From a virus (Duplodnaviria; Heunggongvirae; Uroviricota; Caudoviricetes), in IMG/VR virus record IMGVR_UViG_3300028601_000028, positions 17,878 through 81,877 of that record: DNA of 64,000 nt. One strand, given 5' to 3'. Made by a program: the position numbers and the translations under genes. The notes beneath the pieces were generated by a model that saw only the letters and a program-made list of their open reading frames with translations, ran no database searches and was not told the DNA's origin. Shown piece after piece: positions 1 through 33,871 of the stretch. Each line of letters opens with the position of its first letter. Position 1 is the stretch's first letter.

Positions 1-543
1 ATTAATCCATATCATACCATCATTCGTGTTATCTATATTAGTTGCGAATCCTAGTTCTGAATCAGTTGCTATTTTTTTTAAAACTTCAAAACTAGTATTT
101 GGATAAGACGAGAATGAATTAAAATATAAATTATTAACATTCAGTATACCAACAATAGAATAAATTAGATCATTCTTTTCATTTTCTTTATTCTTTATAA
201 TATTAAAATCTAATATTTTAAAATCCATTCTAATCGGCATTAATATTTCACTATTGGATTGTATAAATAAACTTAATATCTCATTGTCAACTGGAAAAAG
301 AACATCAAATAATCTATTAGTTGGATCTCTAAATTGTACTTCTATTTTAGGCAAAAATTGATTATTATACAGTATTGTTTGTATCATGTTATTAATTTCT
401 ATAACCGTATCTCCAATTTGTAGATATGGATATTTCCCAATTTGTTCAACATAATACTTAATATCATCATCATTTGTATCACCTTCATAATCAATAACTA
501 AATCTCTTAATATTATAGAAGGTCTTTGTATAACTTTAATCAT
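1..543 (-). CDS. hypothetical protein, 3' partial at window edge (start codon ATG at 543 on minus strand); last gene of a minus-strand late-gene block
   Basis: Open frame on the minus strand from 543 to the window edge (MIKVIQRPSIILRDLVIDYEGD...). Tightly packed after ORF 544..999. No recognisable motif. Confidence 0.3.
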   Translation of the reverse strand, partial: MIKVIQRPSIILRDLVIDYEGDTNDDDIKYYVEQIGKYPYLQIGDTVIEINNMIQTILYNNQFLPKIEVQFRDPTNRLFDVLFPVDNEILSLFIQSNSEILMPIRMDFKILDFNIIKNKENEKNDLIYSIVGILNVNNLYFNSFSSYPNTSFEVLKKIATDSELGFATNIDNTNDGMIWIN

Positions 544-3052: not shown

Positions 3053-4249
3053 ATGGCAAAGAAAAAATCAAATTCAAAAACGTTCTCGATATCACAATTA
3101 TCAGGTTTAATAGATAAAATATCAGATGAAACAGAAATAATTGTACAAGGTAATGAAGATTCTGGTTTTATTGATACTGGTGTTTATATTTTAAATGCTC
3201 TTTTTTCAAAAAGTATTTTAAATGGTGGTATTCCAGATGACAGAATAACAATATTTGCAGGTGAACCAAATACAGGTAAATCATATTTATTGTATAATAT
3301 TGCTAGAAATGCTCAAAAAAGAGGAGACTTTATAGTATTTATTGACACTGAACATTCTGTTAGTAAATCTACATTACAATCATTCGGTATTGATTCAAGT
3401 CCTGAAAAATTAAAACTTATATCTTCTAATAAAGTTGAAGATTTAAAAATATTCCTAACCAAATTTCTAGATGGTCTTAAACAAGAGAAAAAATCAGGAT
3501 CAGAAATTCCTAAAATTATAATTTTATTAGATAGTATAGGTCAATTAGCATCAGAAAAAGAAATTGAAGATGCTAAAGAAGGTAAAAACAAAGCTGATAT
3601 GACAAGAGCTAAAGCTATTAAACAATTGTTCAGAATTATTAACTCTGATTTAGGATATTTAGGAATTCCAATGGTAGCAACAAACCATACTTATCAAGAT
3701 ACTAGTTCATTTTTCCCTGTTCCAGTTATGGCAGGTGGAAAAGGAGCAGAATATTCAGCATCTACTATTATATTTTTAAGTACTGCTAAATTAAAAACTG
3801 GCAGAGAAGATGACTTAGATTTAAGTTCAACTGGTGTATTGGTTACAGCACAAGCAAAGAAAAACAGACTAGCTAAACCTAAGAAAGTTAAATTTGAAAT
3901 TGATCATAGTTATGGTACAAATCCATATAAAGGATTAGAATTTTTCTTTACTCCACAAAATTTTGAAAATTTAGGTGTAGCAAAAGGAAAATTAAACGAT
4001 AAGGGTGAGTTTGAACCAGGTGGAACAAGATGGTATATTAAACATTTAAATAAATCGGTTTTTGAAAAACAATTATTTACATCAGAAGTTTTTACGAAAG
4101 AATTATTAGAAAAATTAGAACCAATAATTTATAAATATTTTGATTACTCATCATTTGAAGAACAAGAATTATTTTTATCTAAAATGGACGAGCATGGAGA
4201 AGATTTAGATGCAGATTTTGATGATATTGATAATGATGATTTATTTTAA
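3053..4249 (+). CDS. uvsX: UvsX-type RecA-like recombinase
   Basis: Walker A GEPNTGKS. The block IDSIGQLASEKEIEDAKEGKNKADMTRAKAIKQLFRII...GIPMVATNHTY aligns closely with T4 UvsX (IDSLGNLASKKETEDAL..SDMTRAKTMKSLFRIV...IPCIAINHTY). Acidic C-tail as in UvsX. Confidence 0.85.
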   Translation: MAKKKSNSKTFSISQLSGLIDKISDETEIIVQGNEDSGFIDTGVYILNALFSKSILNGGIPDDRITIFAGEPNTGKSYLLYNIARNAQKRGDFIVFIDTEHSVSKSTLQSFGIDSSPEKLKLISSNKVEDLKIFLTKFLDGLKQEKKSGSEIPKIIILLDSIGQLASEKEIEDAKEGKNKADMTRAKAIKQLFRIINSDLGYLGIPMVATNHTYQDTSSFFPVPVMAGGKGAEYSASTIIFLSTAKLKTGREDDLDLSSTGVLVTAQAKKNRLAKPKKVKFEIDHSYGTNPYKGLEFFFTPQNFENLGVAKGKLNDKGEFEPGGTRWYIKHLNKSVFEKQLFTSEVFTKELLEKLEPIIYKYFDYSSFEEQELFLSKMDEHGEDLDADFDDIDNDDLF

Positions 4250-7992: not shown

Positions 7993-8847
7993 ATGAATAA
8001 ATACAATAGAAAAGAAGTAGAAAAAAATACATTAGATTATTTTAAAGGTGATTCTTTAGCTACTGAAGTATGGATAAATAAATATGCATTAAAAGATTCA
8101 GATGGAAATATTTATGAATTAACACCAGATGATATGCACAAAAGATTATCTAAAGAACTAAATAGAATTGAAAATAAATATCCTAATCCATTATCAGAAG
8201 ATTTAATTTATAATCTATTAAAAGATTTTAAATATATTATCCCACAAGGAGGTCCGATGTCAGGTATAGGTAATGATTTACAAATTGTTAGTTTATCAAA
8301 TTGTTTTGTGACTGGAAATGAAAGTGATAGTTATGGTGGTATATGCAGAACTGATGAACAACAAGTACAATTAATGAAAAGAAGAGGTGGTGTAGGTCAT
8401 GATTTATCACATATTAGACCAAAAGGATCACCCGTTAAAAACTCTGCACTAACATCAACAGGAGTTGTTCCTTTTATGGAAAGATATTCTAATTCAACAA
8501 GAGAAGTAGCACAAGATGGTCGTAGAGGTGCACTCATGTTAAGTTGTTTTGCACCAGATACATTCGTATTAGTTGATTATGGTTGGGATAAAATTATTAA
8601 TGTTATTAATAAAATAAAAAACGGAGAAAAAATAAAAGCATGGACACATAATGGTTTTAAAAATATAACAGATATTCAGGAATTTATTAATAGAGATGTT
8701 TATGAAATTGAATGTGAAAATGGCAAAAAGATAGTTGTAACACCAGATCACGAATTTCAAGTTAGAAATAAAAATACAAAAAAAGAATATTTAAAAGCTA
8801 TTATTGATGTTGATATAGAAAACGAAGAATTAGTATTCTTTTTTTAA
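7993..8847 (+). CDS. nrdJ: class II (adenosylcobalamin-type) ribonucleotide reductase NrdJ, N-terminal fragment ending in a split-intein N-piece
   Basis: NrdJ-like N-terminus (KYALKDSDGN..E, GGVGHDLSHIRPKGS). The extein stops at GALMLS. Cys185 then begins an intein with block A CFAPDTFVLVDYGW and block B KKIVVTPDHEF, which runs into a stop. Confidence 0.75.
   Translation: MNKYNRKEVEKNTLDYFKGDSLATEVWINKYALKDSDGNIYELTPDDMHKRLSKELNRIENKYPNPLSEDLIYNLLKDFKYIIPQGGPMSGIGNDLQIVSLSNCFVTGNESDSYGGICRTDEQQVQLMKRRGGVGHDLSHIRPKGSPVKNSALTSTGVVPFMERYSNSTREVAQDGRRGALMLSCFAPDTFVLVDYGWDKIINVINKIKNGEKIKAWTHNGFKNITDIQEFINRDVYEIECENGKKIVVTPDHEFQVRNKNTKKEYLKAIIDVDIENEELVFFF
8545..8847 (+). mobile_element. split intein N-fragment (100 aa) in nrdJ
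   Basis: Intein blocks A and B with the T..H motif. Starts with Cys and ends at a stop codon, with no C-terminal splicing motifs in this ORF. Confidence 0.6.
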
Positions 8848-9886: not shown

Positions 9887-10003
9887 ATGGATAAAACTTA
9901 TAGTAAAATATTTAAAATAACAAAAAAGGGTAAAAGTAATGTTTATGATTTTACTGTTGATGAAACACATAGAATACTCGCTAATAATTTTTATACTTCA
10001 AAT
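9887..10003 (+). mobile_element. split intein C-fragment (39 aa) of the first nrdJ intein
   Basis: Block F/G-like VYDFTVDETHRILANNFYTSN followed by +1 Cys (CHVKHPD...). Confidence 0.55.
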
Positions 10004-13000
10004 TGTCATGTCAAACATCCTGACGCAGAGGATTTTATAGATGCTAAAATGACACAGGGAAAAGTTACTGGTGCTAATGTTTCTGTTAAATTGGATGACG
10101 AATTTATGAAATGTGTTATCGAAGAAAAACCATATATACAAAAATATCCAATCGATTCTGATAATCCAATTTTCACAAAAGAAATAGATGCTAAAAAATT
10201 ATGGAAAAAAATTATTTATAATGCTTGGAAATCTGCTGAACCAGGTTTGCTATTTTGGGATACTGTTATTAAAGAATCAGTACCTGATTGTTATACTGAA
10301 CATGGGTTTAAAACGGTGAGCACTAACCCCTGTGTTGTGGGTGATACTAAAATATCCGTTGCTGATGGAAGAATGGGTGTAACAATTAAAGAATTAGCAG
10401 AAGAATCAAAAGATGTACCTGTTTATTGTTTAGATAATAATGGGGAATTAGCAATTCGTATAATGAGAAATCCACGTATAACAGGTTATAATAAACAAAT
10501 TTATAAAATTACATTAGACAATGGACAATATATTAGGGTTACTGGTAATCATAAATTTAGATTAAAAAACGGAACATATATAGAAGCTAAAGATTTAAAA
10601 AATGGTGATAGTCTTGATGTTTTTTCAAAGGTTATTATAAATAATAATAAAAGAAAAAACAATTACTATACATTAGTAAATAATTCTAATTCATATCTTG
10701 AACATAGAATGGTATCAGAATTTAATAACGGTAGAAAATTAAATGAAAATGAAGTAGTTCATCATATCGATTATAATGGATTAAATAATAATATTAACAA
10801 TTTAAAAATTATGACTATTGATGAACATAATTCATTACATAGAATTGATAAATTAGGTAATAAAAATCCATATCACAGGATGTCAGATGAATGGAAATTT
10901 AATTTTGCATCAAGAAAGGGTGACACAAATAATAAATTTTGTGGTATATATAATGATGAAATTAAAGAACATTTTATAAAACTAACAAAAAAATTAAATA
11001 GAAGAATATCTAAAAAAGATTGGGTTGAATATGCTAAAGAAAACAATTTACCTCAATATTTTTCTTCTTATAGAAGAAATTACGGAGGAGATATTGTATC
11101 ATTAGCTAAATTAGTATCATTAGAATTAAATATAGATAATAATTTTGTTGATGTAGATCCTAGAATTGTAAAAACTTATAAAAAATCTTTATCAGAAGGT
11201 TATAATTCTAAAATAGATAATAATTCAGTAATAGTAGAAAAACAATGTGAACATTGTGGTGAATTATTTTGGGTAGATTATCAAAAAAGAGAAATTAGTT
11301 TTTGTTCACAAAAATGTGCAAATGTTTATATAAATACCGATAAAAATATTAAATTAAAGAGAAAAATATCTATTAATGATACATATAAACAAAAGATGAT
11401 AAACATCAAAAATAAACAAATGGATATTTTCAAAAAATTAGAATTTAATTTAAAAAGGTGTCCTAAATTAAAAGAATGGGAAAAAGAATGTAAATTAAAT
11501 AATATTCCATATAGATTAAAAACTAAATATGGTTATCAAACATTTAGTGATATTAAAAAAGAATCAGAATATTATAACCATAGAGTAATATCTATTGAGT
11601 TAGATGGATTTGAAAATGTATATAATGGAACAGTTGATGATTTTCATAATTTTTTCAGTGGTGAATTTGAAGAAACTACAAAAACAAATAATAAAAAATA
11701 TGTTTATATTAATCAATTAAACTGTGGTGAGATCCCCTTAAATGTAGGTGACTCTTGTAGATTACTGGCATTAAATTTATATTCTTATGTAGAAAACCCA
11801 TTTACAAAAGATGCAAAATTTAACTATGATTTATTTAAAGAACATGTTATTTATGCACAAAGATTTATGGATGATATTGTTGATTTAGAAATAGAAAAAA
11901 TTGATCAAATTTTAAATAAAATTGATAATGATCCAGAGCCAGAACATATTAAAAGAGTTGAAAGAGAATTGTGGAAATTGATTAAAGACAATGCAGTAAA
12001 AGGTAGAAGAACAGGATTAGGAATTACATCAGAAGGTGATATGATTGCAGCGATGGGGTTAATTTATGGCACATCAGAAGCTACTGATTTTGCAGAAAAT
12101 ATACATAAAATATTGGCTACTTATGCTTATAAATCTTCTATAATAATGGCAGAAGAAAGAGGTTCATTTACAGTATTTAATAAGGATAATGAAAAAAATA
12201 ACCCATTTGTAAATAGAGTTCTTAATTCTTTGAAAGAATTTAAAGAAAATGATATTATAGAAAAGTATAATAAAACAGGACGAAGAAATATATCATTACT
12301 TACAATTGCACCAACTGGTTCTGTTAGTATAGTTACACAAACGACATCTGGAATAGAACCAGTATTTTTACCATCTTATACTAGAAGAAGAAAAATAAAC
12401 CCAAATGATAAAAATACTAAAACATCATTTATTGATGAAGTTGGTGATCATTGGGAAGAATATAATGTATTTCATCATAAGTTTAAAACATGGGCTGAAA
12501 TAAATGGTTATGATACATCTAAACTAGAAACAATGAAACAATCCGAACTAGATGATATAATCAAAAAATCCCCATATTTTAAAGCAACATCTAACGATGT
12601 TAATTGGGTAGAAAAGGTTAGAATGCAGGGTAAAATTCAAAAATGGGTAGATCATTCTATATCTGTTACTATTAATTTACCTTCAGATGTTACAGAAGAA
12701 TTAGTATCACAAGTATATCAAACAGGGTGGGAGTCTGGATGTAAAGGAATTACTGTATATAGAGATGGTTCTAGAAGTGGTGTATTGATAACAAAAACAG
12801 ATAATAAGAAAGCAAATATTTTTCAAGAAAATAATGCACCAAAAAGACCAGAATCATTACAGTGTGATGTTTATAGATTCCAAAATAAGGGAGATAAATG
12901 GATTGGGTTTATGGGATTATTAGATAATAAACCATATGAGATATTTACAGGTCTGCAAGAAAGTGTAAATATACCTAATAATATAACAAAAGGTGAGATT

Positions 13001-13381
13001 AAAAAAGTTAAATCAGCTGAATCTGATGGACATTCTAGATATGATTTTATTTATATAGATAAAGATGGATATAAACAAGAATTTAGAGGGTTATCTAGGG
13101 CATTTAATAGAGAATTTTGGAATACAGGTAGATTGATTTCCGCAGTTCTAAGACATGGTATGCCGTTACCAAATGTTTTACAAATAATGGATAAATTAAT
13201 ATTTGATAGTGATGATGTTATAACATCATGGAAACAAGGTATTAAAAGAATTATAAAAAAATATATAAAAGAAGGAACATTAGTAAAAGGACAAACATGT
13301 GATGTATGTGGTTCATCTAATATAGTTTTTAAAGAAGGTTGCATGACTTGTATGGATTGTGGTACATCTAAATGTGAATAG
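9887..13381 (+). CDS. nrdJ: NrdJ C-terminal portion: split-intein C-fragment (39 aa) + RNR extein, itself interrupted by a second, contiguous HNH-containing intein
   Basis: Starts with an IntC ending VYDFTVDETHRILANNFYTSN|C. The extein then runs to STNP. A Cys-initiated intein follows (aa 149-612) with an HNH motif. The extein resumes with CGEIPL, the class II RNR active-site motif TNPCGEIxL. The C-terminal zinc ribbon CDVCGSS..CMTCMDCG is typical of NrdJ. Confidence 0.8.
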   Translation: MDKTYSKIFKITKKGKSNVYDFTVDETHRILANNFYTSNCHVKHPDAEDFIDAKMTQGKVTGANVSVKLDDEFMKCVIEEKPYIQKYPIDSDNPIFTKEIDAKKLWKKIIYNAWKSAEPGLLFWDTVIKESVPDCYTEHGFKTVSTNPCVVGDTKISVADGRMGVTIKELAEESKDVPVYCLDNNGELAIRIMRNPRITGYNKQIYKITLDNGQYIRVTGNHKFRLKNGTYIEAKDLKNGDSLDVFSKVIINNNKRKNNYYTLVNNSNSYLEHRMVSEFNNGRKLNENEVVHHIDYNGLNNNINNLKIMTIDEHNSLHRIDKLGNKNPYHRMSDEWKFNFASRKGDTNNKFCGIYNDEIKEHFIKLTKKLNRRISKKDWVEYAKENNLPQYFSSYRRNYGGDIVSLAKLVSLELNIDNNFVDVDPRIVKTYKKSLSEGYNSKIDNNSVIVEKQCEHCGELFWVDYQKREISFCSQKCANVYINTDKNIKLKRKISINDTYKQKMINIKNKQMDIFKKLEFNLKRCPKLKEWEKECKLNNIPYRLKTKYGYQTFSDIKKESEYYNHRVISIELDGFENVYNGTVDDFHNFFSGEFEETTKTNNKKYVYINQLNCGEIPLNVGDSCRLLALNLYSYVENPFTKDAKFNYDLFKEHVIYAQRFMDDIVDLEIEKIDQILNKIDNDPEPEHIKRVERELWKLIKDNAVKGRRTGLGITSEGDMIAAMGLIYGTSEATDFAENIHKILATYAYKSSIIMAEERGSFTVFNKDNEKNNPFVNRVLNSLKEFKENDIIEKYNKTGRRNISLLTIAPTGSVSIVTQTTSGIEPVFLPSYTRRRKINPNDKNTKTSFIDEVGDHWEEYNVFHHKFKTWAEINGYDTSKLETMKQSELDDIIKKSPYFKATSNDVNWVEKVRMQGKIQKWVDHSISVTINLPSDVTEELVSQVYQTGWESGCKGITVYRDGSRSGVLITKTDNKKANIFQENNAPKRPESLQCDVYRFQNKGDKWIGFMGLLDNKPYEIFTGLQESVNIPNNITKGEIKKVKSAESDGHSRYDFIYIDKDGYKQEFRGLSRAFNREFWNTGRLISAVLRHGMPLPNVLQIMDKLIFDSDDVITSWKQGIKRIIKKYIKEGTLVKGQTCDVCGSSNIVFKEGCMTCMDCGTSKCE
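10331..11722 (+). mobile_element. contiguous intein (464 aa) with HNH homing-endonuclease domain inserted between TNP and CGEIPL of NrdJ
   Basis: Begins CVVGDTKISVADG (block A) directly after STNP. Internal HNH motif VVHHIDYNGLNNNINNLKIMTIDEHNSLH. Ends ...YINQLN, followed by extein CGEIPLNVGDSC. Confidence 0.7.
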
Positions 13382-13386
13382 ATAAA

Positions 13387-13418
13387 AAGACTCATTTAAA
13401 TGAGTCTTTTTTATTTTA
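13387..13418 (+). terminator. rho-independent terminator after nrdJ
   Basis: Perfect palindrome aagactcattt-aaatgagtctt followed by ttttttatttt. Confidence 0.7.
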
Positions 13419-13473
13419 AAATGATTTTAGAACCATTGTTATATTATATATAATAATAAAAACATATATTAAA

Positions 13474-13677
13474 ATGGAAGAACAAATTACAATAGAACAA
13501 TTAATAGAAATTTTAGAAGATGCTAAACAAGATTATGATAAATTTTATGGCAGAAATATTAAAGCAGCGTCAACTAGACTTAGAAAAAAAATACAAGATG
13601 TTTCTAAACTAACAAAAGTAATGAGAAAACAAATAATTGATTATAAAAAGACAATTAAGAAAAAAGGGGAAATTTAA
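13474..13677 (+). CDS. small lysine-rich protein (67 aa)
   Basis: ORF with its stop codon inside the loop of the downstream terminator hairpin. Confidence 0.35.
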   Translation: MEEQITIEQLIEILEDAKQDYDKFYGRNIKAASTRLRKKIQDVSKLTKVMRKQIIDYKKTIKKKGEI

Positions 13678-13692
13678 ATTTCCCCTTTTTTT
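13661..13692. terminator. bidirectional rho-independent terminator between convergent genes
   Basis: aaaaagggg-aaatttaaattt-cccctttttt: GGGG/CCCC stem with A-run and T-run flanks. Stops of both convergent ORFs abut it. Confidence 0.75.
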
Positions 13693-14038
13693 ACATATTA
13701 AAAATATCTTTTATTACTTCTTTAAATTTATCTTTGCTTACACCCCCAACCATCATTTGTGGCTTTTCATCAACAGGTATAAATAATAAACTAGGTACAC
13801 TTTTAATCCCGAACATAGCTGATAATTCTTGCTCTTCTTCTACATCTATTTTATAAAAATTGATATTATCATATTCATTATCTAATTCATCTAAAATTGG
13901 TTGAATTTGCTTGCAAGGCTGACACCATGAAGCTGTAAATTTTAAAATTGTAGGTTTATTTCCTAAATATTTCCAATCTTGATTATTTTCAAAATCAAAT
14001 ATTTCTGTTTTAAATGTTTCTAATGTTAAATTGTTCAT
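13691..14038 (-). CDS. trx: thioredoxin
   Basis: WCQPCK active-site motif (WCxPC). Size of 115 aa and the thioredoxin fold pattern (FYKIDVEE...VPSLLF). Adjacent to the RNR gene. Confidence 0.7.
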   Translation of the reverse strand: MNNLTLETFKTEIFDFENNQDWKYLGNKPTILKFTASWCQPCKQIQPILDELDNEYDNINFYKIDVEEEQELSAMFGIKSVPSLLFIPVDEKPQMMVGGVSKDKFKEVIKDIFNM

Positions 14039-14109
14039 AATTTTATTTTTTATTTATACATAGTAAAAAAAACAAATAAAGTTTATTTATATATACAATA
14101 AAAACCAAT

Positions 14110-14592
14110 ATGGATAATATACTTACATATCTAGAACAATCTATTGAAATCGAATTAAATATATCTGAATTATATAAGTTGTTTTTTCTTAATTTTGAAG
14201 AAGATTATGATTTTTGGTGGAGATTATATATAGAAGAAATAAATCATGCATCATTATTAAAATCAGGTAAAGATTTTATAAAAACGAATGATTTTCCAAA
14301 AGGTTTGTTATTAGATAATATAGAGGATATTGTTAGTATAAATAGTAGAATTCTATCATACATTGATTATTTCAAAAATAATTCATCAAGAGAACAATCA
14401 TTTAAAATCGCACTTGAAATTGAAGGTTCAGCAGCAGAATTACATTTTGAAAATTTCATGAATAGTATATCTAACAATAAAGTGGTTAATATTTTCCAAA
14501 AATTGAATGGTTTTGATATAGAACATTATAATAGAATAAAAAAATATATTGAAGATAATAATATTAATATTAATATTGATAATATTAAATAA
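14110..14592 (+). CDS. hypothetical helical protein (160 aa)
   Basis: ORF with no confident motif. A weak ExxH-like segment (IEEINHA) is noted but not relied on. Confidence 0.35.
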   Translation: MDNILTYLEQSIEIELNISELYKLFFLNFEEDYDFWWRLYIEEINHASLLKSGKDFIKTNDFPKGLLLDNIEDIVSINSRILSYIDYFKNNSSREQSFKIALEIEGSAAELHFENFMNSISNNKVVNIFQKLNGFDIEHYNRIKKYIEDNNININIDNIK

Positions 14593-14625
14593 ATTTATTA
14601 TTTTTGTAAATTAAAATTAAATAAT

Positions 14626-15183
14626 ATGACAAAAGAAATTAAAAAATTTAATGAATTTGAAACGGATTTAAATAAGTTAAAAAATGATATTATAGATATT
14701 CCAGATTTTCCAAAACCTGGAATTTTATTTAGAGATATATCTACACTATTATCACAACCTAGTAAGATTAGATTAATGGTAAATAGTTTTTATAATTATT
14801 TAAAGAATAAAGATATAGATATTGTTGTTGGTTTAGATGCTCGTGGTTTCATTTTAGGTTCAATGATTGCAGATAAATTAGATGTAGGATTTGCTATGGC
14901 TAGAAAAAAAGGTAAAGCACCTGACCATTATGTATATAAAAAATATGATTTAGAATATGGTAGTAATGAAATGGGATTATCACCATTAATTATTAAAGAA
15001 GGTATGAGAGTTCATATTCATGATGATTTATTAGCAACCGGTGGTTCATCTAAAAATATTATAAATATAATTGAAAGCTTTGGTGCCATTGTAGATTCTA
15101 TTTCATTTATAATTGAATTAGAAAATTTAAACGGTAAAGAAATATTAAAAGGATATGATATATATTCATTAATAAAATACTAA
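14626..15183 (+). CDS. apt: adenine phosphoribosyltransferase (type I PRTase)
   Basis: DARGFILGSMIADKLDVGFAMARKKGK...YDLEYGSNEM...GMRVHIHDDLLATGGS matches the APRT consensus (DARGF..G...A..LG.G...iRK.GKLP...Y.LEYG...VvvvDDLLATGGT). Confidence 0.7.
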   Translation: MTKEIKKFNEFETDLNKLKNDIIDIPDFPKPGILFRDISTLLSQPSKIRLMVNSFYNYLKNKDIDIVVGLDARGFILGSMIADKLDVGFAMARKKGKAPDHYVYKKYDLEYGSNEMGLSPLIIKEGMRVHIHDDLLATGGSSKNIINIIESFGAIVDSISFIIELENLNGKEILKGYDIYSLIKY

Positions 15184-15200
15184 AAAATAATATAATAAAA

Positions 15201-15392
15201 ATGATTAAAAAATTTAGCCAAATGAATGAATCAATTAGTATGAATTATACTAATACATTAATATCATTTTCAGGTGATGATTGGGTAGGTATTTATAAAG
15301 ATGGTATTCTTTATCAACAAGGACATAGTATATATTGGAAAAATTTACTAAAAGATCTAATTAATGATAAAGTTGATTTATATTCGTCTTGA
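15201..15392 (+). CDS. small hypothetical protein (63 aa)
   Basis: Short ORF. A hairpin lies immediately downstream. Confidence 0.25.
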   Translation: MIKKFSQMNESISMNYTNTLISFSGDDWVGIYKDGILYQQGHSIYWKNLLKDLINDKVDLYSS

Positions 15393-15399
15393 AAGAAAA

Positions 15400-15422
15400 C
15401 CAATAAATCTTTAGTTTATTGG
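15400..15422 (+). other. perfect 8-bp stem-loop ccaataaa-tctttag-tttattgg upstream of tnpB; possible terminator or IS200/605 left-end-like hairpin
   Basis: Inverted repeat read directly from the sequence. No T-tract follows. Confidence 0.3.
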
Positions 15423-15572
15423 ATGAATTTCAATTAAATTTTTTAAAATATTTTTAAACTATAAATAACTATAAATCAATATTTTAACCATTTAATTTTT
15501 AAAAATGGAAAAAATGATATTTTTCATTTAATATATAATTATACAGATAAATCAAAAAAAGGTTGTATAAAA

Positions 15573-16808
15573 ATGAAAACATATCAAATAAGATTATATC
15601 CTACTAAAAATCAAATAGATGAATTGAATGAATTATCATTCACCAGAAGTGAAATATGGAATGAATTATTGGATATACAACAAAAATCATATGAAAATAA
15701 TAAATCTATATACAACAAGTTTGATCTTAACAATATGTTACCTAAATTAAAAGAAAAATACCCAACATGGAAAAAATTAAACTCTAAATCAATTCAAACA
15801 ATATCAACAGAATTATTTGGTTCTTATAGATCATTTTTCAATTTAATTAAAAAAGATAAAAATACTAGACCTCCGAAAAAGATAGAATTTAATGATTACC
15901 ATACGATTACATGGAATCAATCTGGTTGGATAATAAAAGAAAATAATATTATAATAATAAATAAAATATCTTTTAGATATAAATCTAATTTGGATATTAA
16001 AAACTTAAATATTAAAGAAATTAGAGTTAAACATGTAAGAAATAAATGGTTATGTGATTTAATTGTTAATGATGAAATTAAATATAAAAATGATTTAAAT
16101 ATTAAAACAAATGTTTTAGCCTTTGATTTGGGTTTGAGTAAATTAGCAACAGGAATAGATAACAAAGGAAATCAAATAGTAGTAGAGAACAAAAGTAAAA
16201 AAATAAATAAATATTTTCAAAAACAAATAGGCAAAGTACAAGAAAAAAGAAGTAAAACTAAAAAAGGTTCAAAAAGAAATAAAAAGTTAAGAAAAGATTT
16301 AAATAAATTATATCATAGAAAGAACGAACAAATAAAACAAACTCTCCATATTCAGAGTAAAAAATTAGCGAATATGAACTATAATACAATTATAGTTGGT
16401 GATCTATCAGTTAAAAAATTAATGGAAAAAGAAGGAACAAATAAAAAGAAAAAAGGTATTAGAAAGTCATTTCATCAATCTAATATCAATATGTTTTTAC
16501 AATTTCTTTCTTATAAGTGCCAGAGTAAAAATATTAATTTAACAAAAATTGATGAAAAATGGACAAGTCAATTAAATTGTTTAACCGGTAAATTATTTGA
16601 TAAAAAAATAGAATTGAATAACAGAAAAGTTAAATTATCAAATGAAATAACAATAGATCGAGATTTAAATTCAGCCATAAATATAATAAAAAGATGGTTT
16701 GAAAATCATTTTGCTTCCATGAACGAGCCATTGGATTTAACCAATGTACTTGAAAAGTATAATCTTTCCAATGAAACACACAAATCTTTACCATTCATGG
16801 TTATTTAG
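15573..16808 (+). CDS. tnpB: IS200/IS605-family TnpB (OrfB)-like protein; RuvC-II glutamate replaced by Gly and zinc-finger cysteines lost
   Basis: Typical TnpB N-terminus (MKTYQIRLYPTKNQIDELNEL). RuvC-I AFDLGLSKLATG and RuvC-III IDRDLNSAINI are present. At the RuvC-II position, where TnpB normally has I-V-x-E-D-L, the sequence is NTIIVGDLSVKKL. The Zn finger TSQxCxxCG reads TSQLNCLTG, and the second CxxC is absent. Confidence 0.8.
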   Translation: MKTYQIRLYPTKNQIDELNELSFTRSEIWNELLDIQQKSYENNKSIYNKFDLNNMLPKLKEKYPTWKKLNSKSIQTISTELFGSYRSFFNLIKKDKNTRPPKKIEFNDYHTITWNQSGWIIKENNIIIINKISFRYKSNLDIKNLNIKEIRVKHVRNKWLCDLIVNDEIKYKNDLNIKTNVLAFDLGLSKLATGIDNKGNQIVVENKSKKINKYFQKQIGKVQEKRSKTKKGSKRNKKLRKDLNKLYHRKNEQIKQTLHIQSKKLANMNYNTIIVGDLSVKKLMEKEGTNKKKKGIRKSFHQSNINMFLQFLSYKCQSKNINLTKIDEKWTSQLNCLTGKLFDKKIELNNRKVKLSNEITIDRDLNSAINIIKRWFENHFASMNEPLDLTNVLEKYNLSNETHKSLPFMVI

Positions 16809-16944
16809 TTTGTGTGTAGTTCATCAATAAATGATATATATGATGAAGAATTCTGGAACAAATCAGGATATAATTGTCCAAATACAATAAATGAGTTAGT
16901 TAATATTTGTAAAGAATTAAATATAAAAATAAAAATAAAATAGT

Positions 16945-17352
16945 ATGTATAAAAATATCATTAAAAAAACATGTGAAGAATGTGGATATTATGGTGATTT
17001 TGAAGAAATTTTAACGGAACAGGATGAATATTTTATAAATTGTAATAGATGTGGATATTTTAAACAAAAAATGATAAAAAATGTTATTAATGATATTAAT
17101 AAGATAAAAGAAACATTTCCTAAATATACAGAAGATGAAAGGTTTATAACAGTAATAAAAGGTGGTTTTGGGACTTGGAAAATTATACAGAATAATGTTA
17201 AAAATGAAGGTTCATTTGTAGATCAAAATCATATAAATGATTTTCTATCTAATATAGAAAAAATTATTGATATTGAAGGTGTAACTGAAATTTCATATAA
17301 TATAAAAGTTAATAATAATTGGGAATATAAAGAAATAAAAAAACCTTCTTAA
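16945..17352 (+). CDS. zinc-ribbon protein (CEECGYYG...CNRCGYF)
   Basis: Two CxxCGY pairs at the N-terminus, 135 aa. Terminator directly downstream. Confidence 0.4.
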   Translation: MYKNIIKKTCEECGYYGDFEEILTEQDEYFINCNRCGYFKQKMIKNVINDINKIKETFPKYTEDERFITVIKGGFGTWKIIQNNVKNEGSFVDQNHINDFLSNIEKIIDIEGVTEISYNIKVNNNWEYKEIKKPS

Positions 17353-17367
17353 AGAAGGTTTTTTTAT
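17342..17367. terminator. bidirectional rho-independent terminator (stop codon in loop)
   Basis: aaaccttctt-aaagaaggtttttttatt hairpin with a T-run. Lies between convergent ORFs 16945..17352 and 17368..18024. Confidence 0.7.
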
Positions 17368-18024
17368 TTATAAATCATTAAATCTTCGTATAATTTTCTT
17401 ATTATTATCTGATATTGTTTCTATTGGTTTATACTGTTTAGTTTTAGTTAATGTATCTTTTTTATTATCTCTGCTCTCATTTTTTGGCTTATTATCTACA
17501 TTTTCTTCGATTTTTGATTCTTCTTCTAATTTTTTCATTTGTTGAACCAATTCTATTTCTTTTTGTTTTTCTCTTTCTAAGATATCATCTATGTTATTAA
17601 CATGTTTAACAGTTGGTATTACTTTTTCTTCAACTTTTTTTGGTTTTTCTTCAACTAATGGTTTATCTTTTTCTAAAATAGCGTCAACCATTACTTTAGG
17701 TTTAGATGGTTTTTCTATTTCTTGATAAAGTTCTTCTATTTTTACATTGGCTCTTGTTTTAATTTCAAATTCATCTGACCAAACAGGAAAATATAATTCT
17801 TCTGATATTATTTCGAATTTTATTTTTCCGGTCTCACCTTTATTATAATTTGATAATTGTGGAATATTAAATGTACAAATATTATCTGTAACATTACCAA
17901 AAAATAAATAATTATTATTTTCATTAGTTATAATTAATCTAGGTTCAATATTATTAATATCGATTCCTTCTATATTAATTTTAAATTTTAATTTATCGTT
18001 CTTTTCATTATTGTAGAATTCCAT
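17368..18024 (-). CDS. hypothetical protein with N-terminal beta domain and K/E-rich coiled-coil C-half
   Basis: ORF. Long charged helical segment (KPKKVEEKVIPTVKHV...EKQKEIELVQQMKKLEEESK). Confidence 0.4.
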   Translation of the reverse strand: MEFYNNEKNDKLKFKINIEGIDINNIEPRLIITNENNNYLFFGNVTDNICTFNIPQLSNYNKGETGKIKFEIISEELYFPVWSDEFEIKTRANVKIEELYQEIEKPSKPKVMVDAILEKDKPLVEEKPKKVEEKVIPTVKHVNNIDDILEREKQKEIELVQQMKKLEEESKIEENVDNKPKNESRDNKKDTLTKTKQYKPIETISDNNKKIIRRFNDL

Positions 18025-18142
18025 AATTGTTAAAATTCTTTTTTATTATATATAAAAAAATAAAAATCATTTTTATTAAAAATAATAAAATACATATTTT
18101 TTATTTAATATATATATTAAAATATACAATTAATATATTTCT

Positions 18143-18400
18143 ATGATGAATAGATTAAGATTACATAATATTTTAATAAATAGTGGGTATGAATTAAATA
18201 GTGATAAAGTCATAATTTATAGCAATCCATCTAAATTTTACTATAAAGATGGTATAATTATAAAGTTTTTTGATGATAGAAGTGTTATAATAGATGATAC
18301 TTTTTATAATAGAAAGTATAAATTTAATAAAAATGATAGTAATTATATAATATCTAATTTTATAAAAATGTTAGAAAAAAATCCAGATAAAGTTTTTTAG
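18143..18400 (+). CDS. hypothetical protein (85 aa)
   Basis: ORF after an AT-rich divergent intergenic region. Confidence 0.3.
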   Translation: MMNRLRLHNILINSGYELNSDKVIIYSNPSKFYYKDGIIIKFFDDRSVIIDDTFYNRKYKFNKNDSNYIISNFIKMLEKNPDKVF

Positions 18401-18450
18401 ATTAAAAATTATTTTATATATTTGCATCTAATTTGTTAATTTAGATAAAA

Positions 18451-19485
18451 ATGAATAAAATAAACAACAGATTTAATATTCTATACAAAACAATAAACGA
18501 CTTCAATTTAAATATAATAAATAAACAGAATATTTATAGTAAATATTCTGACATTCATGGTATTAGAATATCAAATGATTTATTGTCGTTTTTTACAAAT
18601 CTCAATGATACTAATAATAAAGCAGAATACATATTACAGTTATTATTTAGTAATACAATGAATTATGATTATTGCAATCATATTAAAAATAATTTTTTAG
18701 TAGATTTAATTAGTTTATCATTTGGTGATAATGGTTATATAAATACACATAATGATAAACAAAAAATAAAACTTGGTAAATTTATAAATAAAATAGTATT
18801 ATTAGTAAATCAATATGGTTATAATGAATGTATAACTGATGATCAAATTGAAAAAATTGTTGATAAATATAAATCATTTAATACACCTAATGATAACATA
18901 TATTTTAATATACTAGAAGGTGATGATATTTTAAAGGGGTATCAGATAGATAATTACGAAAAAAGAAACTCTAGTGCACTACATGGATCTTGTATGAATA
19001 ATAAATCTGATCTATTAAAATTGTATACACAAAATAAAAATAAAGTAAAATTATTAACATTAAATCGAAATGATAAGATAATCGGAAGATCGTTAATATG
19101 GGATTTAGATAAACCTAAATACATATTTATGGATAGAATATATGCAGTTGATAATTATTTATATAAAATATTTGAAGATTTCGCAATATCTAATAATTGG
19201 ATATATAGGGAAAATTATGCTAGAAATGTTTTTAAAGTAAATTGTTATTTTAAAAGTAAAAATTCACATATTGAAAAACTATCAAATAAAATACGTTTAA
19301 CAGTAAAATTAAATACTGATAATATTAAACTATATCCATATATGGATTCATTTGTATATAGAAGTCATTTAACTAACAAATTTTATATAAATAGTAAAAA
19401 TATGATAAATTACACATATTATCAATCTACTAATGGTGGTAAAACAACCATTAAAAATATACCAATGTTATCATTATTTAGTTAA
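18451..19485 (+). CDS. member of a three-copy paralogous family in this window (with 62050..63582 and 63583..64000)
   Basis: Shared block HGSCMNNKSDLLKLYTQNKNKVKLLTLNRNDKIIGRSLIWDLD...IFMDRIYAVDNY versus RGSCMRYEECGDYLKFYAINPDKVKLIILMDEDHDDKIKGRALLWKID...YFMDRIYFIDNE in 62050..63582. Confidence 0.45.
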   Translation: MNKINNRFNILYKTINDFNLNIINKQNIYSKYSDIHGIRISNDLLSFFTNLNDTNNKAEYILQLLFSNTMNYDYCNHIKNNFLVDLISLSFGDNGYINTHNDKQKIKLGKFINKIVLLVNQYGYNECITDDQIEKIVDKYKSFNTPNDNIYFNILEGDDILKGYQIDNYEKRNSSALHGSCMNNKSDLLKLYTQNKNKVKLLTLNRNDKIIGRSLIWDLDKPKYIFMDRIYAVDNYLYKIFEDFAISNNWIYRENYARNVFKVNCYFKSKNSHIEKLSNKIRLTVKLNTDNIKLYPYMDSFVYRSHLTNKFYINSKNMINYTYYQSTNGGKTTIKNIPMLSLFS

Positions 19486-20082
19486 TTTTAATTGAATTGA
19501 TTGTATTATTTGTAAATATTTATTTTGTATATACTTTATAATATCATTTTTTTTACTAATATCTGATGTAGTTAATAATTTATTTACTATGTCTTGTATC
19601 AATTCATCTCTGTTATATTCAGATATAAAATGAGATAATTTTATATTATTATGGTATATTTTATTTAATATTATTATATCATTATCGAAATTAGTATTTA
19701 CTATTTCTACAATTTTTTCGTATATAAGTGATTTTTTAGGAATAAACATTGTTTTTTCGTTATTAAATAAAATATTATCTATAATATCATTTACAGAATT
19801 TGTTACATCTACTAATGATGTTTTTAATGTTAAAGATATCATATTTATACTGGATTGATCATCTAATATATTTTTATGTTCTCTTAGTTGTTCTATTTTA
19901 TCTATTATTTTATTATTTTGTTCTTCAAAACTATTAACAATTTCTTTAATTTTTTTTCTATCATTTCTCTTATTATAAATAATAGTAAATACATATGCTA
20001 ATGTTATTATTATTAAAGCAGATAACTTGTAAATACTATCAATAGAATCTATCACACTAGGATCAATTTGAAGCAATAACAT
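19474..20082 (-). CDS. membrane-anchored coiled-coil protein
   Basis: N-terminal hydrophobic segment LSALIIITLAYVFTIIY followed by heptad-like helical sequence. Confidence 0.4.
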   Translation of the reverse strand: MLLLQIDPSVIDSIDSIYKLSALIIITLAYVFTIIYNKRNDRKKIKEIVNSFEEQNNKIIDKIEQLREHKNILDDQSSINMISLTLKTSLVDVTNSVNDIIDNILFNNEKTMFIPKKSLIYEKIVEIVNTNFDNDIIILNKIYHNNIKLSHFISEYNRDELIQDIVNKLLTTSDISKKNDIIKYIQNKYLQIIQSIQLKLTK

Positions 20083-23722: not shown

Positions 23723-24037
23723 TTATTTTTTAATATTATTTTCATTTAAATAGATATTAATAGTTTCATACTTTTTACAATTATTTATAAAATTTACTTC
23801 ATCATAAATGTCTAATTTAAACCATTCTCCATTAACTTTTTTATGTCTATAAATATTATGTAATGTTTTTTCTATTATTTTACTATAATCTGATTGATAT
23901 TCATCAACTATAATAATTTTATTAGGACAACCTGTTTGTAAATTTTTTAATCTTGAATTTACTGTACTTTTTGTATATCCTATTTTATATATTGGAGAAT
24001 TATCATCAATCATTTTTAATAAGTATACTTTTGGCAT
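23723..24037 (-). CDS. small GIY-YIG-like (T5orf172/MUG113-type) domain protein
   Basis: VYLLKMIDDNSPIYKIGYTKSTVNSRLKNLQTGCP...EKTLHNIYRHKKVNGEWFKL matches the T5orf172 pattern (YiY...g.iKIG.T.....Rl..l......E..lH..f...r..gEWF). Confidence 0.5.
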   Translation of the reverse strand: MPKVYLLKMIDDNSPIYKIGYTKSTVNSRLKNLQTGCPNKIIIVDEYQSDYSKIIEKTLHNIYRHKKVNGEWFKLDIYDEVNFINNCKKYETINIYLNENNIKK

Positions 24038-29783: not shown

Positions 29784-29855
29784 GCAAGAATAGTGTAGTG
29801 GTAGCATGATTTACTTCCAGTAAATAGGGTTCGGTTCGATTCCGGTGTCTTTGCT
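29784..29855 (+). tRNA. tRNA, probably tRNA-Gly (anticodon UCC)
   Basis: Cloverleaf read by hand: acceptor GCAAGAA/TCTTTGC (one mismatch, one G-U), D-arm GTGT-AGTGGTA-GCAT, anticodon stem ATTTA/TAAAT with loop CTTCCAG (U33, anticodon TCC, A37), and T-arm with GGTTCGATTCC. No encoded CCA. Followed by a terminator. Confidence 0.6.
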
Positions 29856-29860
29856 CAAAA

Positions 29861-31620: not shown

Positions 31621-32007
31621 TTATATATGTAGTTTCTTTAAAAGTTTAGAAATTATATTATTTAATTTATAATTTCTTTTAATATCAATTGGTGTTAAAC
31701 AATCAATTATCCAATTTTTTAAATTATGATAATCATCATTGTCTAATACTATTTCATATCTTAAAGATTCATGATTAAATATTATTGTACTATTTTCTAT
31801 TAATATATTAGAAACATTATTTAAATCATCCCCATAATTATAATATTCAGATTTAAATATTTGTAGTACTCTATCTCTTCCTTGATAACTCACAAATACA
31901 ATTAATCCATTTATTGTTATTGCTATATAATTTGTAATATATAAATTATAAATATTATTTAATGAATCTTTATATGTATATATTTCATTATTCATAATTA
32001 TATTCAA
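31621..32007 (-). CDS. hypothetical protein (128 aa)
   Basis: ORF overlapping the upstream gene start by 20 nt. Confidence 0.35.
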   Translation of the reverse strand: MNIIMNNEIYTYKDSLNNIYNLYITNYIAITINGLIVFVSYQGRDRVLQIFKSEYYNYGDDLNNVSNILIENSTIIFNHESLRYEIVLDNDDYHNLKNWIIDCLTPIDIKRNYKLNNIISKLLKKLHI

Positions 32008-33871
32008 ATTTTAAGTTTCCTGAATTATATATTCTATATATTTTTCTTTCTAACATTATATCATGTTCTGATTTGGTTGGATCAAATCCTTCTTTAATTA
32101 AAATGTCTTTTCTAAATCCAAATCTATATTTTTTAATACCATTAACTACATAATAGTAGTTAGGTTTTGTTATATGTCGTAATTTAAATTTAAGTTTTTT
32201 ATATAAATCACCATTACTATAATTTCTATCTGCATATGATATAATTTTCTTAGGATTATAATTTTTAATAAAATAATTAAATAGTTTAGATCCACCTCCA
32301 ATGACAATGGTGTTGAGTTTATTACAAAATCTTAACATCTCATATTCATCATTTTTAGATATATTATTCATAGATTTCCTCAATTTACCAAATGTCATTA
32401 AACTAACTAGTTCATCATTATAAAATAAACCTATTTTATGTTTTGAACCAACAAAACCTTGAATATGGTTTTCATCTAAAAACTTTTTAATCAATTCGTT
32501 ATTATTTACTTCTTTAATTTTACATTTTCTTGCAAATATTTTATTAGATATTCTATTTAATTTATTCAATATCATTGATTTGATTATTTCTTGTTTATAA
32601 ACCCAATCGTCTTCATAAATATGTATTAACTGAATTCCATTTCTTGTACATAAATCGGTTTTCATTTTATGATAATTATTATCACAATATAACTCGTTAT
32701 GCCAATATACACCATTAAATTCAAATGCTAATTTTAAGTCAGGTAAATAAATATCTAATTCATACGGGTTTATTATTTTTCTATCATTTTCTATAATATC
32801 ACCATTATAATTTTCTTTAATAAAATTTAACAATTTAATTTCTAATCCTGATGTATGTAACCCAATAGGGTTACAAATTATACACGGTATGGTATTTGAA
32901 TGTAATCTTTGGTTAAGAAGAACGTAATTAATTATATATTCATTGTTACACAATGGACATTTAACTAAATATTTTTTATCATAATAATTTAATAAATCTA
33001 TATTATATTTTTCTTTATATAATTTTTTATTTTTAATAAATAAAGTTGATAATATATTATTTTTAATTTTATTAGATATATGTAAATTACATGATGGTAC
33101 ATGTGATCCATATTTTTCTAAATTTGTATTAATTGTATTATTTCTAATAATATTGTTTTGTTGTGGATGTTTAAATCCATATTTTTTTAAATTAGTTTTT
33201 ATTATTTTTTCTTTTATAAATTCATTCTGAAAAACATTTTCAACTCCATATTTTTCTAAATTTGTATTAATTAATTTTTGTTTTATTTCTTCCGAATACA
33301 TAGGATGTTCAACACCATACTTATCAGTTAATGTTTTCTTAATTTTATCTTTAATATTGTCATTTAAAAGAGGTGTTATATTTCCATATTTTTGTAAATT
33401 AGTATTATCTTTCTTTTTTTTAATATCAGGTGATGACAATCCATAATCATATCCATATTTTTCTAAATTAGTACTAATTAACTTTTGTTTTATTTCTTCC
33501 GAATGCATTGGATGATCAACACCATACTTATCAATTAATGTTTTTTTAGATTTTTCTTTTATTTCTTCTAATTGAAAAACATTATCAACACCATATTTAT
33601 TTTGTAATCTCTTTTTACATTTATTGTTTGCGCATTTCTTACTACAACAATAATCTTCTTTTAAACCATTAGTATTCTTGTAATAATTATGATATTGGGT
33701 TTTTTTGGTTTTTCCACATATATCACATTTAACATCTATTTTATAATGACTACTATGTGGTAAATCTGTTATTTTAACAATAGAATTATCAGTTGAAACA
33801 TCATATCCAATTGATTTATAATAATTCTTTAATTTTCTATTGTTTACAGTTATATATTCATCTATTATCAT
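31988..33871 (-). CDS. large free-standing homing-endonuclease-like protein: Zn-finger, six tandem KYG(V/Y)-helix repeats, Vsr-like nuclease motif and an extra C-terminal domain
   Basis: KCDICGKTKKTQYHNYYKN...CCSKKCANNKC. Repeats such as KYGVDNVFQLEEIKEKSKKTLIDKYGVDHPMHSEEIKQKLISTNLEKYG. Nuclease motif DIYLPDLKLAFEFNGVYWHNE...GIQLIHIYEDDW. Confidence 0.55.
   Translation of the reverse strand: MIIDEYITVNNRKLKNYYKSIGYDVSTDNSIVKITDLPHSSHYKIDVKCDICGKTKKTQYHNYYKNTNGLKEDYCCSKKCANNKCKKRLQNKYGVDNVFQLEEIKEKSKKTLIDKYGVDHPMHSEEIKQKLISTNLEKYGYDYGLSSPDIKKKKDNTNLQKYGNITPLLNDNIKDKIKKTLTDKYGVEHPMYSEEIKQKLINTNLEKYGVENVFQNEFIKEKIIKTNLKKYGFKHPQQNNIIRNNTINTNLEKYGSHVPSCNLHISNKIKNNILSTLFIKNKKLYKEKYNIDLLNYYDKKYLVKCPLCNNEYIINYVLLNQRLHSNTIPCIICNPIGLHTSGLEIKLLNFIKENYNGDIIENDRKIINPYELDIYLPDLKLAFEFNGVYWHNELYCDNNYHKMKTDLCTRNGIQLIHIYEDDWVYKQEIIKSMILNKLNRISNKIFARKCKIKEVNNNELIKKFLDENHIQGFVGSKHKIGLFYNDELVSLMTFGKLRKSMNNISKNDEYEMLRFCNKLNTIVIGGGSKLFNYFIKNYNPKKIISYADRNYSNGDLYKKLKFKLRHITKPNYYYVVNGIKKYRFGFRKDILIKEGFDPTKSEHDIMLERKIYRIYNSGNLKFEYNYE

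Follow-up and report, generated by a model that had tools for sequence, protein, structure and literature searches.

An IS1341-type insertion sequence in an AT-rich tailed phage encodes a TnpB with a probable relocated RuvC-II glutamate

Results

Architecture of the insertion

The 64,000-nucleotide stretch of DNA analysed here (hereafter the window, which spans positions 17,878 to 81,877 of IMG/VR virus record IMGVR_UViG_3300028601_000028) comes from a very AT-rich tailed phage (about 21% GC) and carries a gene for a 411-amino-acid TnpB protein. A first-pass annotation, made from the sequence alone, had noted that the RuvC-II motif of this protein lacks the usual glutamate and that its zinc finger is degraded, and had offered two readings: a nuclease-dead TnpB that serves as an RNA-guided regulator, or a TnpB whose catalytic site is rearranged. 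We consider it highly probable that the gene belongs to an intact, non-autonomous IS1341-type element of the IS200/IS605 family, which encodes a RuvC-II-rearranged, zinc-finger-less TnpB and interrupts a gene for a 105-amino-acid phage protein at a point 3' of a TTTAT motif (Table 1).

The limits of the element are evident from other copies. When the flanks of 21 relatives on viral contigs are aligned, conservation of the upstream DNA begins at a hairpin with the loop TCTTTAG, as in the right end. One copy (locus L039) is 96.7% identical to the window in a gapless alignment of 1443 bp that runs from ATTCGTCTTG to GTAGTTCAT, and has unrelated flanks on both sides; L040 holds the element copy of L039, and L041 represents a third site. 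TTTAT stands immediately ahead of the first shared base in the window and in the L039/L040 copies. Because the gapless match to the L039/L040 copy starts there, we take this base as the start of the element and TTTAT as its target-adjacent motif (TAM). A start at 15391/15392 was considered and discarded, since the outer stem of the left end and the second copy both place it at 15382.

Other left ends conform to this arrangement. In 10 of the 11, TTTAT precedes AAAGAAAA and the hairpin by about 10 nt (L025 has ATTAT/TTATAT), and beyond it the upstream sequences are unrelated. The left-end structure shows covariation across these 11 copies, with 96.1% of cells paired compared to 29-48% in slid controls and compensatory changes in 11 of 14 pairs, and the left end of the window folds as DNA into the same outer stem and hairpin. 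At the right, the flanks of all copies diverge immediately beyond the terminus AGTTCAT (16818-16824). The first-pass annotation had listed one hairpin upstream of tnpB, at 15400..15422, and another just downstream, at 16817..16843; the former is real, and the latter was misplaced relative to the conserved right-end hairpin, which overlaps the tnpB stop. The junctions exhibit no target duplication, there are no terminal inverted repeats, and the subterminal hairpins have the same orientation at both ends. The left end and tnpB are separated by 191 bp that contain no open reading frame (ORF). Hairpin ends, insertion 3' of a motif of 4-5 nt, and tnpB as the sole gene are the features that place the element in the IS1341 group.

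The loop of the right-end hairpin carries a lineage-specific 17-nt insertion, CCATTCATGGTTATTTA, at 16791-16807, which folds into a mini-hairpin of its own. This insertion supplies the TAG stop codon (16806-16808) and changes the carboxyl terminus of TnpB from ...SLVxV to ...SLPFMVI. L039, L040 and L041 all carry it elsewhere, so that it is no bar to mobility, and copies that bear it are found at three sites. Taken together, these comparisons establish that the element is intact and has moved recently.

The interrupted gene is equally well defined. A query that fuses its two halves retrieved an intact 105-amino-acid protein (P0271) from the protein database, with 93% identity over 100% of its length, and its gene lies between the same neighbours in three element-free contigs (L036, L037 and L038). 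The empty-site contigs match the window in their flanks at 98.8% and 99.7% identity. The sequence of the empty allele is GTTGATTTAT-CACAATATAAACTTTTAT-CAATAAATGATATATATG, and that of the window is GTTGATTTAT-[element]-CAATAAATGATATATATG. In the empty allele, TTTAT is followed by the exact sequence that is found after the right end of the element, whereas TTCAT precedes that sequence in the filled allele; TTTAT is present at both possible junctions of the empty site. Other searches were less productive. Scans of viral contigs with an initial guess at the fused ORF and with a neighbouring 135-amino-acid protein gave no matches, and a blastn search with 13000-19500 returned nothing useful at the DNA level among deposited phages.

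The catalytic site of TnpB

The protein is readily recognised as a TnpB. NCBIfam NF040570 (guided_TnpB, RNA-guided endonuclease TnpB family) matches residues 4-374 of 411 with an E value of 1.4e-47, the Pfam families HTH_OrfB_IS605, OrfB_IS605 and Cas12f1-like_TNB as well as PHROG 506 also match, and the architecture is that of the family, with an HTH/WED-REC amino terminus and a split RuvC domain with an inserted TNB in about 400 residues. Both motifs named in the first-pass annotation are present, FDLG in RuvC-I (D185, codon 16125-16127) and DRDLNSAINI in RuvC-III (D364, codon 16662-16664). Values of dN/dS for tnpB range from 0.10 to 0.33 (0.105 against the nearest copy), and thus the gene is under purifying selection.

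At the RuvC-II position the protein reads IIVGDLSV. When the protein is aligned with solved TnpB-type chains, by single sequence (phmmer) or by profile, G276 (codon 16398-16400) falls opposite the canonical glutamate, the counterparts being IAVEDLNPK (9yyg), FEDLNV (9j09) and ITIEDLNVK (ISFba1, 8iaz). The manual alignment behind the first-pass annotation was therefore not off, and the canonical D-E-D triad with its glutamate on beta4 (IxxED) is missing from this TnpB. The zinc finger (CxxC...CxxC) is lost, as that annotation had also observed, with C336 the only one of the four cysteines to remain.

What had been missed is Glu328 (codon 16554-16556), which lies within IDEKWTSQ, 52 residues past G276 and 7 residues ahead of the first cysteine position of the zinc finger. 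We collected 906 metagenomic proteins at E <= 1e-5, the best 120 of which are 65-97% identical, and found D185, G276, E328 and D364 to be invariant in all 121 family sequences. A broader set was obtained by aligning 117 full-length matches from a search of 1.84 billion cluster representatives. In this set, glycine at the canonical site is accompanied by glutamate at the alternative site in 33 of 33 cases, and none of the 84 representatives that lack the glycine has the alternative glutamate. These 84 retain the canonical glutamate and have P, R, A, S or K where the alternative one would be (VDPxYTSQ). The zinc finger is lost from 13 of the 33 rearranged representatives and from none of the 84 canonical ones, and NCLTG...LS replaces its motif in 13 of the 33 and throughout the 121-member family. 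Judged from these alignments, zinc-finger loss is a trait of a subclade within the rearranged class, marked by a conserved NCLTG.

Structural modelling agrees with this pattern. An AlphaFold2 model built on a shallow alignment was unusable at the carboxyl terminus (pLDDT below 50 over residues 330-411), and a model from a deeper alignment (pLDDT 90.6, pTM 0.78) was used instead. In the latter, a strand at 272-277 ends at G276/D277, E328 directly follows a strand at 322-327, and a helix at 363-378 starts around D364; the zinc-free TNB stretch (330-362) is confidently modelled. Foldseek aligns the model to the TnpBs of ISFba1 (8iaz) and ISDra2 (8h1j) with TM scores of 0.67-0.75, and to ApmFanzor2 (9b0l) with 0.67/0.60.

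This arrangement has been described. In RuvC-II-rearranged proteins an E-to-G change is compensated by a glutamate on beta5 instead of beta4 (PMC10691335), about 45 residues downstream of the canonical site (PMC10530073) and six residues ahead of the zinc-finger motif (PMC13565253). TvTnpB and Fanzors with a relocated glutamate cleave DNA, and the alternative glutamate is essential in ApmFanzor (PMC10530073). Virus-specific rearranged branches exist, RIIr-4 among them, and some large TnpB branches have lost the zinc finger (PMC10691335), which therefore is not strictly a defining feature of TnpBs. The window protein has an inert residue, G276, in place of the canonical glutamate (glycine or proline in the class) and an alternative glutamate, E328, at the end of beta5. 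On these sequence characters it is a member of the published RuvC-II-rearranged class (TnpB2/RIIr), its catalytic triad is most likely D185-E328-D364, and the enzyme is probably active rather than dead.

Relatives are also found in Asgard archaeal metagenome-assembled genomes (MAGs) of Odinarchaeota and Promethearchaeota, where proteins of 30-33% identity with the same YNTI[VI][VI]GDL and IDRDLNSAI motifs are numerous (L043-L057 and others). The only close cellular matches (96% and 79%) come from short contigs of 22% GC that were binned into a Saccharofermentanales MAG and are probably phage.

A candidate guide RNA

TnpB guide RNAs are structured, end at the right end of the transposon and are followed directly by the guide, and the 3' end of this element has the sequence features expected of such a design. 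The first-pass annotation had looked to the 3' side of tnpB for a structured RNA, and a covarying candidate omegaRNA scaffold is found there, though Rfam has no match for it. We examined covariation in the last ~110 nt of 17 copies, a region that lies partly inside the coding sequence. Paired cells amount to 94.6%, compared to 34-46% with slid partners; compensatory changes occur in 22 of the 34 pairs, and none of 500 shuffles reached this level. For example, the ATGAAC/GTTCAT helix becomes ATGACA/TGTCAT in L013 and L016 and GTGAAC/GTTCAC in L019. The window scaffold folds at -27.8 kcal/mol (z -3.4). Its first two helices cannot both nest and jointly give an H-type pseudoknot adjacent to the guide, with a topology that may resemble that of the ISDra2 guide RNA.

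With a custom covariance model of the scaffold, R1, a single copy is detected in the window, at 96 bits, a score that is not independent because the window sequence is in the training alignment. The held-out sister copies L039 and L040 score 100 bits, and R1 also detects the 3' ends of tnpB copies outside its training set, down to 42% protein identity. Neither further scaffold copies nor stand-alone guides were found in the window. Rfam searches (evalue mode over 15000-17500 and gathering mode over the whole window) yielded no guide-RNA family, returning solely terminator-like noise at about 17335-17370 and one tRNA. The former corresponds to an AT-rich hairpin at 17333-17369, with a 17-bp stem and T runs on both sides, which lies between convergent genes, looks like a bidirectional terminator and gave only weak, sub-threshold Rfam matches near the element. 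The tRNA gene, for tRNA-Gly (TCC), is single and located at 29784-29856.

The predicted guide corresponds to the interior of the 105-amino-acid ORF and not, as the first-pass annotation had envisaged, to a promoter, and its sole perfect match within the window is the guide site itself. Because the end of the element reads TTCAT, the combination of TTTAT and guide is limited to element-free alleles. TnpB guide RNAs are known to target vacant sites in this flank/guide arrangement (PMC10055086).

Several related loci carry the same parts in other combinations. Scaffolds without an adjacent tnpB occur in L019 (2170-2268, 77 bits with R1) and L040 (117-204, minus strand, 66 bits), and the latter and a left-end fragment at 399-461 (minus strand) together resemble a mini-element some 350 bp long. 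At 7237-7290 of L019, another left end lies 13 nt beyond a right end (GGTAGTTCAC TTATAATTTTACA AAGAAAAC), an arrangement that represents tandem or adjacent insertions. In L008 (9642-9862, minus strand), the carboxyl terminus of a different, zinc-finger-bearing TnpB (WNCPECGSVHDRDFNAAINI) ends in the same right-end hairpin and AGTTCAT, suggesting that one transposase family mobilises several TnpB clades. A 448-amino-acid ORF in L023 (4009-5546), which by eye is IscB-like, with a RuvC-I-like GIDSGYKNIG and an HNH-like HHCKPRS...HEKCH, is flanked by hairpins of the type found in the window element and adjoins a truncated tnpB. One end type may thus carry both kinds of nuclease.

Phage context

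The window codes for a terminase large subunit, a gp25-like baseplate protein, DnaB and other helicases, and a UvsX-like recombinase (3053-4249), and also carries an intein-interrupted ribonucleotide reductase (RNR) and free-standing homing endonucleases. The label 'T4-like', used in the first-pass annotation, is not established for this phage, and a role in host takeover is unsupported. Nor is TnpB unusual in such a setting, as had been thought, since relatives are encoded in 68 deposited phage records, including those of Campylobacter, Staphylococcus and Lactobacillus phages, and the TnpB family of the window is present in 33 IMG/VR viral contigs. At 21% GC a promoter scan carries no information, and it gave fewer matches than in shuffled sequences.

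Additional features were noted in the window. Pieces of the RNR large subunit lie at 7993-8847 and 9887-13381; the 1164-amino-acid RNR ORF has Pfam intein-splicing and HNH domains, a 284-amino-acid ORF has RNR and weak Hint matches, and this region is rich in selfish elements. A 627-amino-acid homing-endonuclease/HNH protein is encoded at 31988-33871 (minus strand; PHROG 3339, E 6e-140), and an ORF with a T5orf172/MUG113 domain at about 23723-24037 (minus strand) represents a further free-standing endonuclease gene. At 13474-13677 (plus strand), a 67-amino-acid ORF with a match to Pfam Hc1 (PF07432) adjoins a thioredoxin gene.

Table 1. Coordinates in the window of the insertion sequence, its parts and the interrupted gene
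Feature	Position	Strand	Remarks
IS200/IS605-family, tnpB-only (IS1341-type) complete insertion sequence, 1443 bp	15382..16824	+	gapless second copy
TAM, TTTAT	15377..15381	+	directly 5' of the left end of the element
Left-end structure	15389..15433	+	outer stem 15389-15394/15428-15433; hairpin 15400-15422, loop TCTTTAG; covariation in 11 copies
tnpB, 411 aa	15573..16808	+	predicted catalytic residues D185, E328, D364; Gly276 at canonical RuvC-II position; lacks zinc finger
Right-end hairpin	16776..16817	+	stem 16776-16784/16809-16817, loop TCTTTA..G; overlaps tnpB stop; 8/9 stem pairs compensatory
Candidate omegaRNA scaffold	16708..16824	+	overlaps 3' end of tnpB; covariation in five helices
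Scaffold helix	16713-16716/16725-16728	+	covariation
Pseudoknot or closing helix, ATGAAC with GTTCAT	16719-16724/16819-16824	+	covariation
Scaffold hairpin	16729-16735/16740-16746	+	covariation
Scaffold helix	16749-16757/16764-16772	+	covariation
Predicted guide, CAATAAATGATATATA	16825..16840	+	about 16 nt (length assumed); first bases past the right end of the element
5' part of split phage gene	15201..15381	+	annotated 63-aa ORF (15201..15392): last 3 codons element-encoded, stop 15390-15392
3' part of split 105-aa gene	16825..16943	+	open frame without a start of its own; small ORF 16812..16943

Discussion

If the element operates as its parts suggest, the 3' end of the tnpB transcript would fold into a guide-RNA scaffold that ends at 16824, and the next ~16 nt, CAATAAATGATATATA, would act as the guide. 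The complex of TnpB and this RNA would then recognise TTTAT followed by CAATAAATGATATATA, a combination present only in element-free alleles, and would cut those alleles. Recombinational repair from an element-bearing genome would restore or spread the element, and break-induced copying is plausible because the phage encodes a UvsX-like recombinase. First-time insertions would need, in trans, a Y1 (HUH) TnpA, the type of transposase that mobilises elements of this group as single-stranded DNA. We infer that the RNA is expressed and processed, that the nuclease is active, and that the element homes.

Some of our observations sit uneasily with an intact, active element of this kind. The zinc finger is lost from a TnpB that we predict to be active, and the window copy combines the 17-nt loop insertion with two mismatches in one scaffold helix. 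No tnpA was found by tblastn in the 64-kb window, in agreement with its reported absence nearby, or in loci L001-L039, although the probe, an IS608 TnpA sequence, was a weak one. Finally, the empty allele has 18 nt, CACAATATAAACTTTTAT, separating its two TTTAT motifs (L036 5444-5461), and these are missing from the filled allele. Their absence (at window 15377-15381/16825) is not predicted by simple insertion 3' of the TAM; the two TTTAT repeats may have slipped against each other, or the transposase or TnpB may have removed the 18 nt as a side effect.

Could these peculiarities mean that the protein no longer cuts DNA? Glycine in place of the canonical RuvC-II glutamate and the missing zinc finger would suit a nuclease-dead TnpB that has been exapted, in the manner of TldRs, as an RNA-guided DNA-binding regulator of a phage or host promoter, and TldRs are indeed phage-borne and often lack the zinc finger or parts of RuvC (PMC10705468). 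We regard this as very improbable. The alternative glutamate is invariant and covaries perfectly with loss of the canonical one; the protein has its full length and an undamaged RuvC-I and RuvC-III. The transposon has kept both of its ends and occupies no fewer than three unrelated sites, whereas TldRs have no identifiable ends and a fixed gene partner, and the guide is a flank within a small ORF and not a promoter. Proteins with an alternative glutamate have in fact been the source of spurious 'dead' calls (PMC10705468). It is the other proposal of the first-pass annotation, a rearranged site, that agrees with E328, whose position directly after beta5 in a confident model and covariation across the 117 representatives match the published descriptions (PMC10691335, PMC10530073, PMC13565253). 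A decaying copy whose protein or RNA is defunct is likewise very improbable. The loop insertion, the altered carboxyl-terminal peptide, the two helix mismatches and the undetected autonomous transposase would all be expected of such a relic. However, the ORF is intact with a dN/dS of 0.105 against the nearest copy, every catalytic residue is retained, the insertion-bearing variant occupies three sites, and the R1 score of the window copy, with the dependence noted above, is near that of L039/L040.

An active TnpB might instead serve mainly as a weapon or marker-exclusion device against element-free related phages during co-infection, and spread by homing alone, without a TnpA. The failure to find TnpA with our weak probe is compatible with this view, as are the filled and empty alleles in near-identical phages with a perfect TAM and guide match, and the presence in this phage of a UvsX-like recombinase, other homing endonucleases and inteins; the concept has been discussed for phage homing endonucleases (PMC13565253). 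Near-identical copies at unrelated sites nevertheless require true transposition, beyond homing, and the covarying end hairpins, which are the substrate of a Y1 transposase, are maintained. We therefore judge an exclusively homing device unlikely and favour a transposable element, with TnpB probably active. For an element of this kind we consider it plausible that inheritance is biased against element-free sibling phages. A more speculative extension, which we advance only tentatively, is that the zinc-finger-less, glutamate-relocated TnpB lineage has become specialised in virulent, extremely AT-rich phages as an RNA-guided homing endonuclease that cuts element-free siblings at TTTAT plus guide in co-infection and is copied by UvsX-type recombination, in which case the 18-nt deletion would be a scar. 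If this were true, the lineage would be the RNA-programmed counterpart of seg/mob marker exclusion in T4, and the filled/empty pair would make the idea directly testable in metagenomes or in culture.

An IS1341-type element with a rearranged, zinc-finger-less TnpB is fairly ordinary within the described class, and our findings leave the current understanding of TnpB biology unchanged. Two results are mildly new: a clean pair of filled and empty alleles that occurs naturally in phages, and a TAM, element ends and scaffold defined for this subclade. Glycine at the canonical RuvC-II site does not imply a dead TnpB, and a tempting mis-call is thereby corrected. The allele pair in near-identical uncultivated phages also offers a system for asking whether TnpB elements bias inheritance, and a compact, zinc-free rearranged clade with the TAM TTTAT and a scaffold of ~100 nt could be of interest for genome editing.

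Relation to known systems

The closest parallels are the rearranged TnpBs (TnpB2, PMC10530073; RIIr, PMC10691335), such as TvTnpB of Thermoplasma volcanium. Shared characteristics include glycine for the canonical glutamate, an alternative glutamate about 50 residues further on and ahead of the TSQ/zinc-finger position, the RuvC-III motif DRDxN, carriage by a transposon, and a 3' guide RNA, which in the window is a candidate. The subclade of the window differs in that it lacks the four zinc-finger cysteines (NCLTG), belongs to tnpB-only elements, and resides in very AT-rich phages.

Like the window protein, TldRs (PMC10705468) are phage-borne TnpB relatives in which a canonical catalytic residue is substituted and the zinc finger is missing. 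Their triad has decayed without compensation, whereas E328 is predicted to compensate here and D185 and D364 are intact. They also have no transposon ends, occur in fixed association with fliC or oppF, and act on promoters. The window element shares none of these traits; its ends are intact and its flanks differ in all loci. Eukaryotic and giant-virus Fanzor1 and Fanzor2 share the relocation of the RuvC-II glutamate, and the predicted structure is like that of ApmFanzor2 (9b0l). Fanzors, however, keep the zinc finger, are larger and reside in eukaryotic transposons, while the TnpB of the window is compact and belongs to a prokaryotic virus.

Elements of the ISDra2/IS608 type (PMC10055086) likewise lack inverted repeats, have subterminal hairpins, and insert 3' of a motif that doubles as the TAM. 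Their guide is the right-end flank, so that the element-free allele is the target, as is predicted here, and ISDra2 TnpB has the same fold (TM 0.68/0.75). The window element is distinguished from them by its lack of tnpA, by TTTAT rather than TTGAT or TTAC as the TAM, by the rearranged glutamate and missing zinc finger of its TnpB, and by its residence in a phage.

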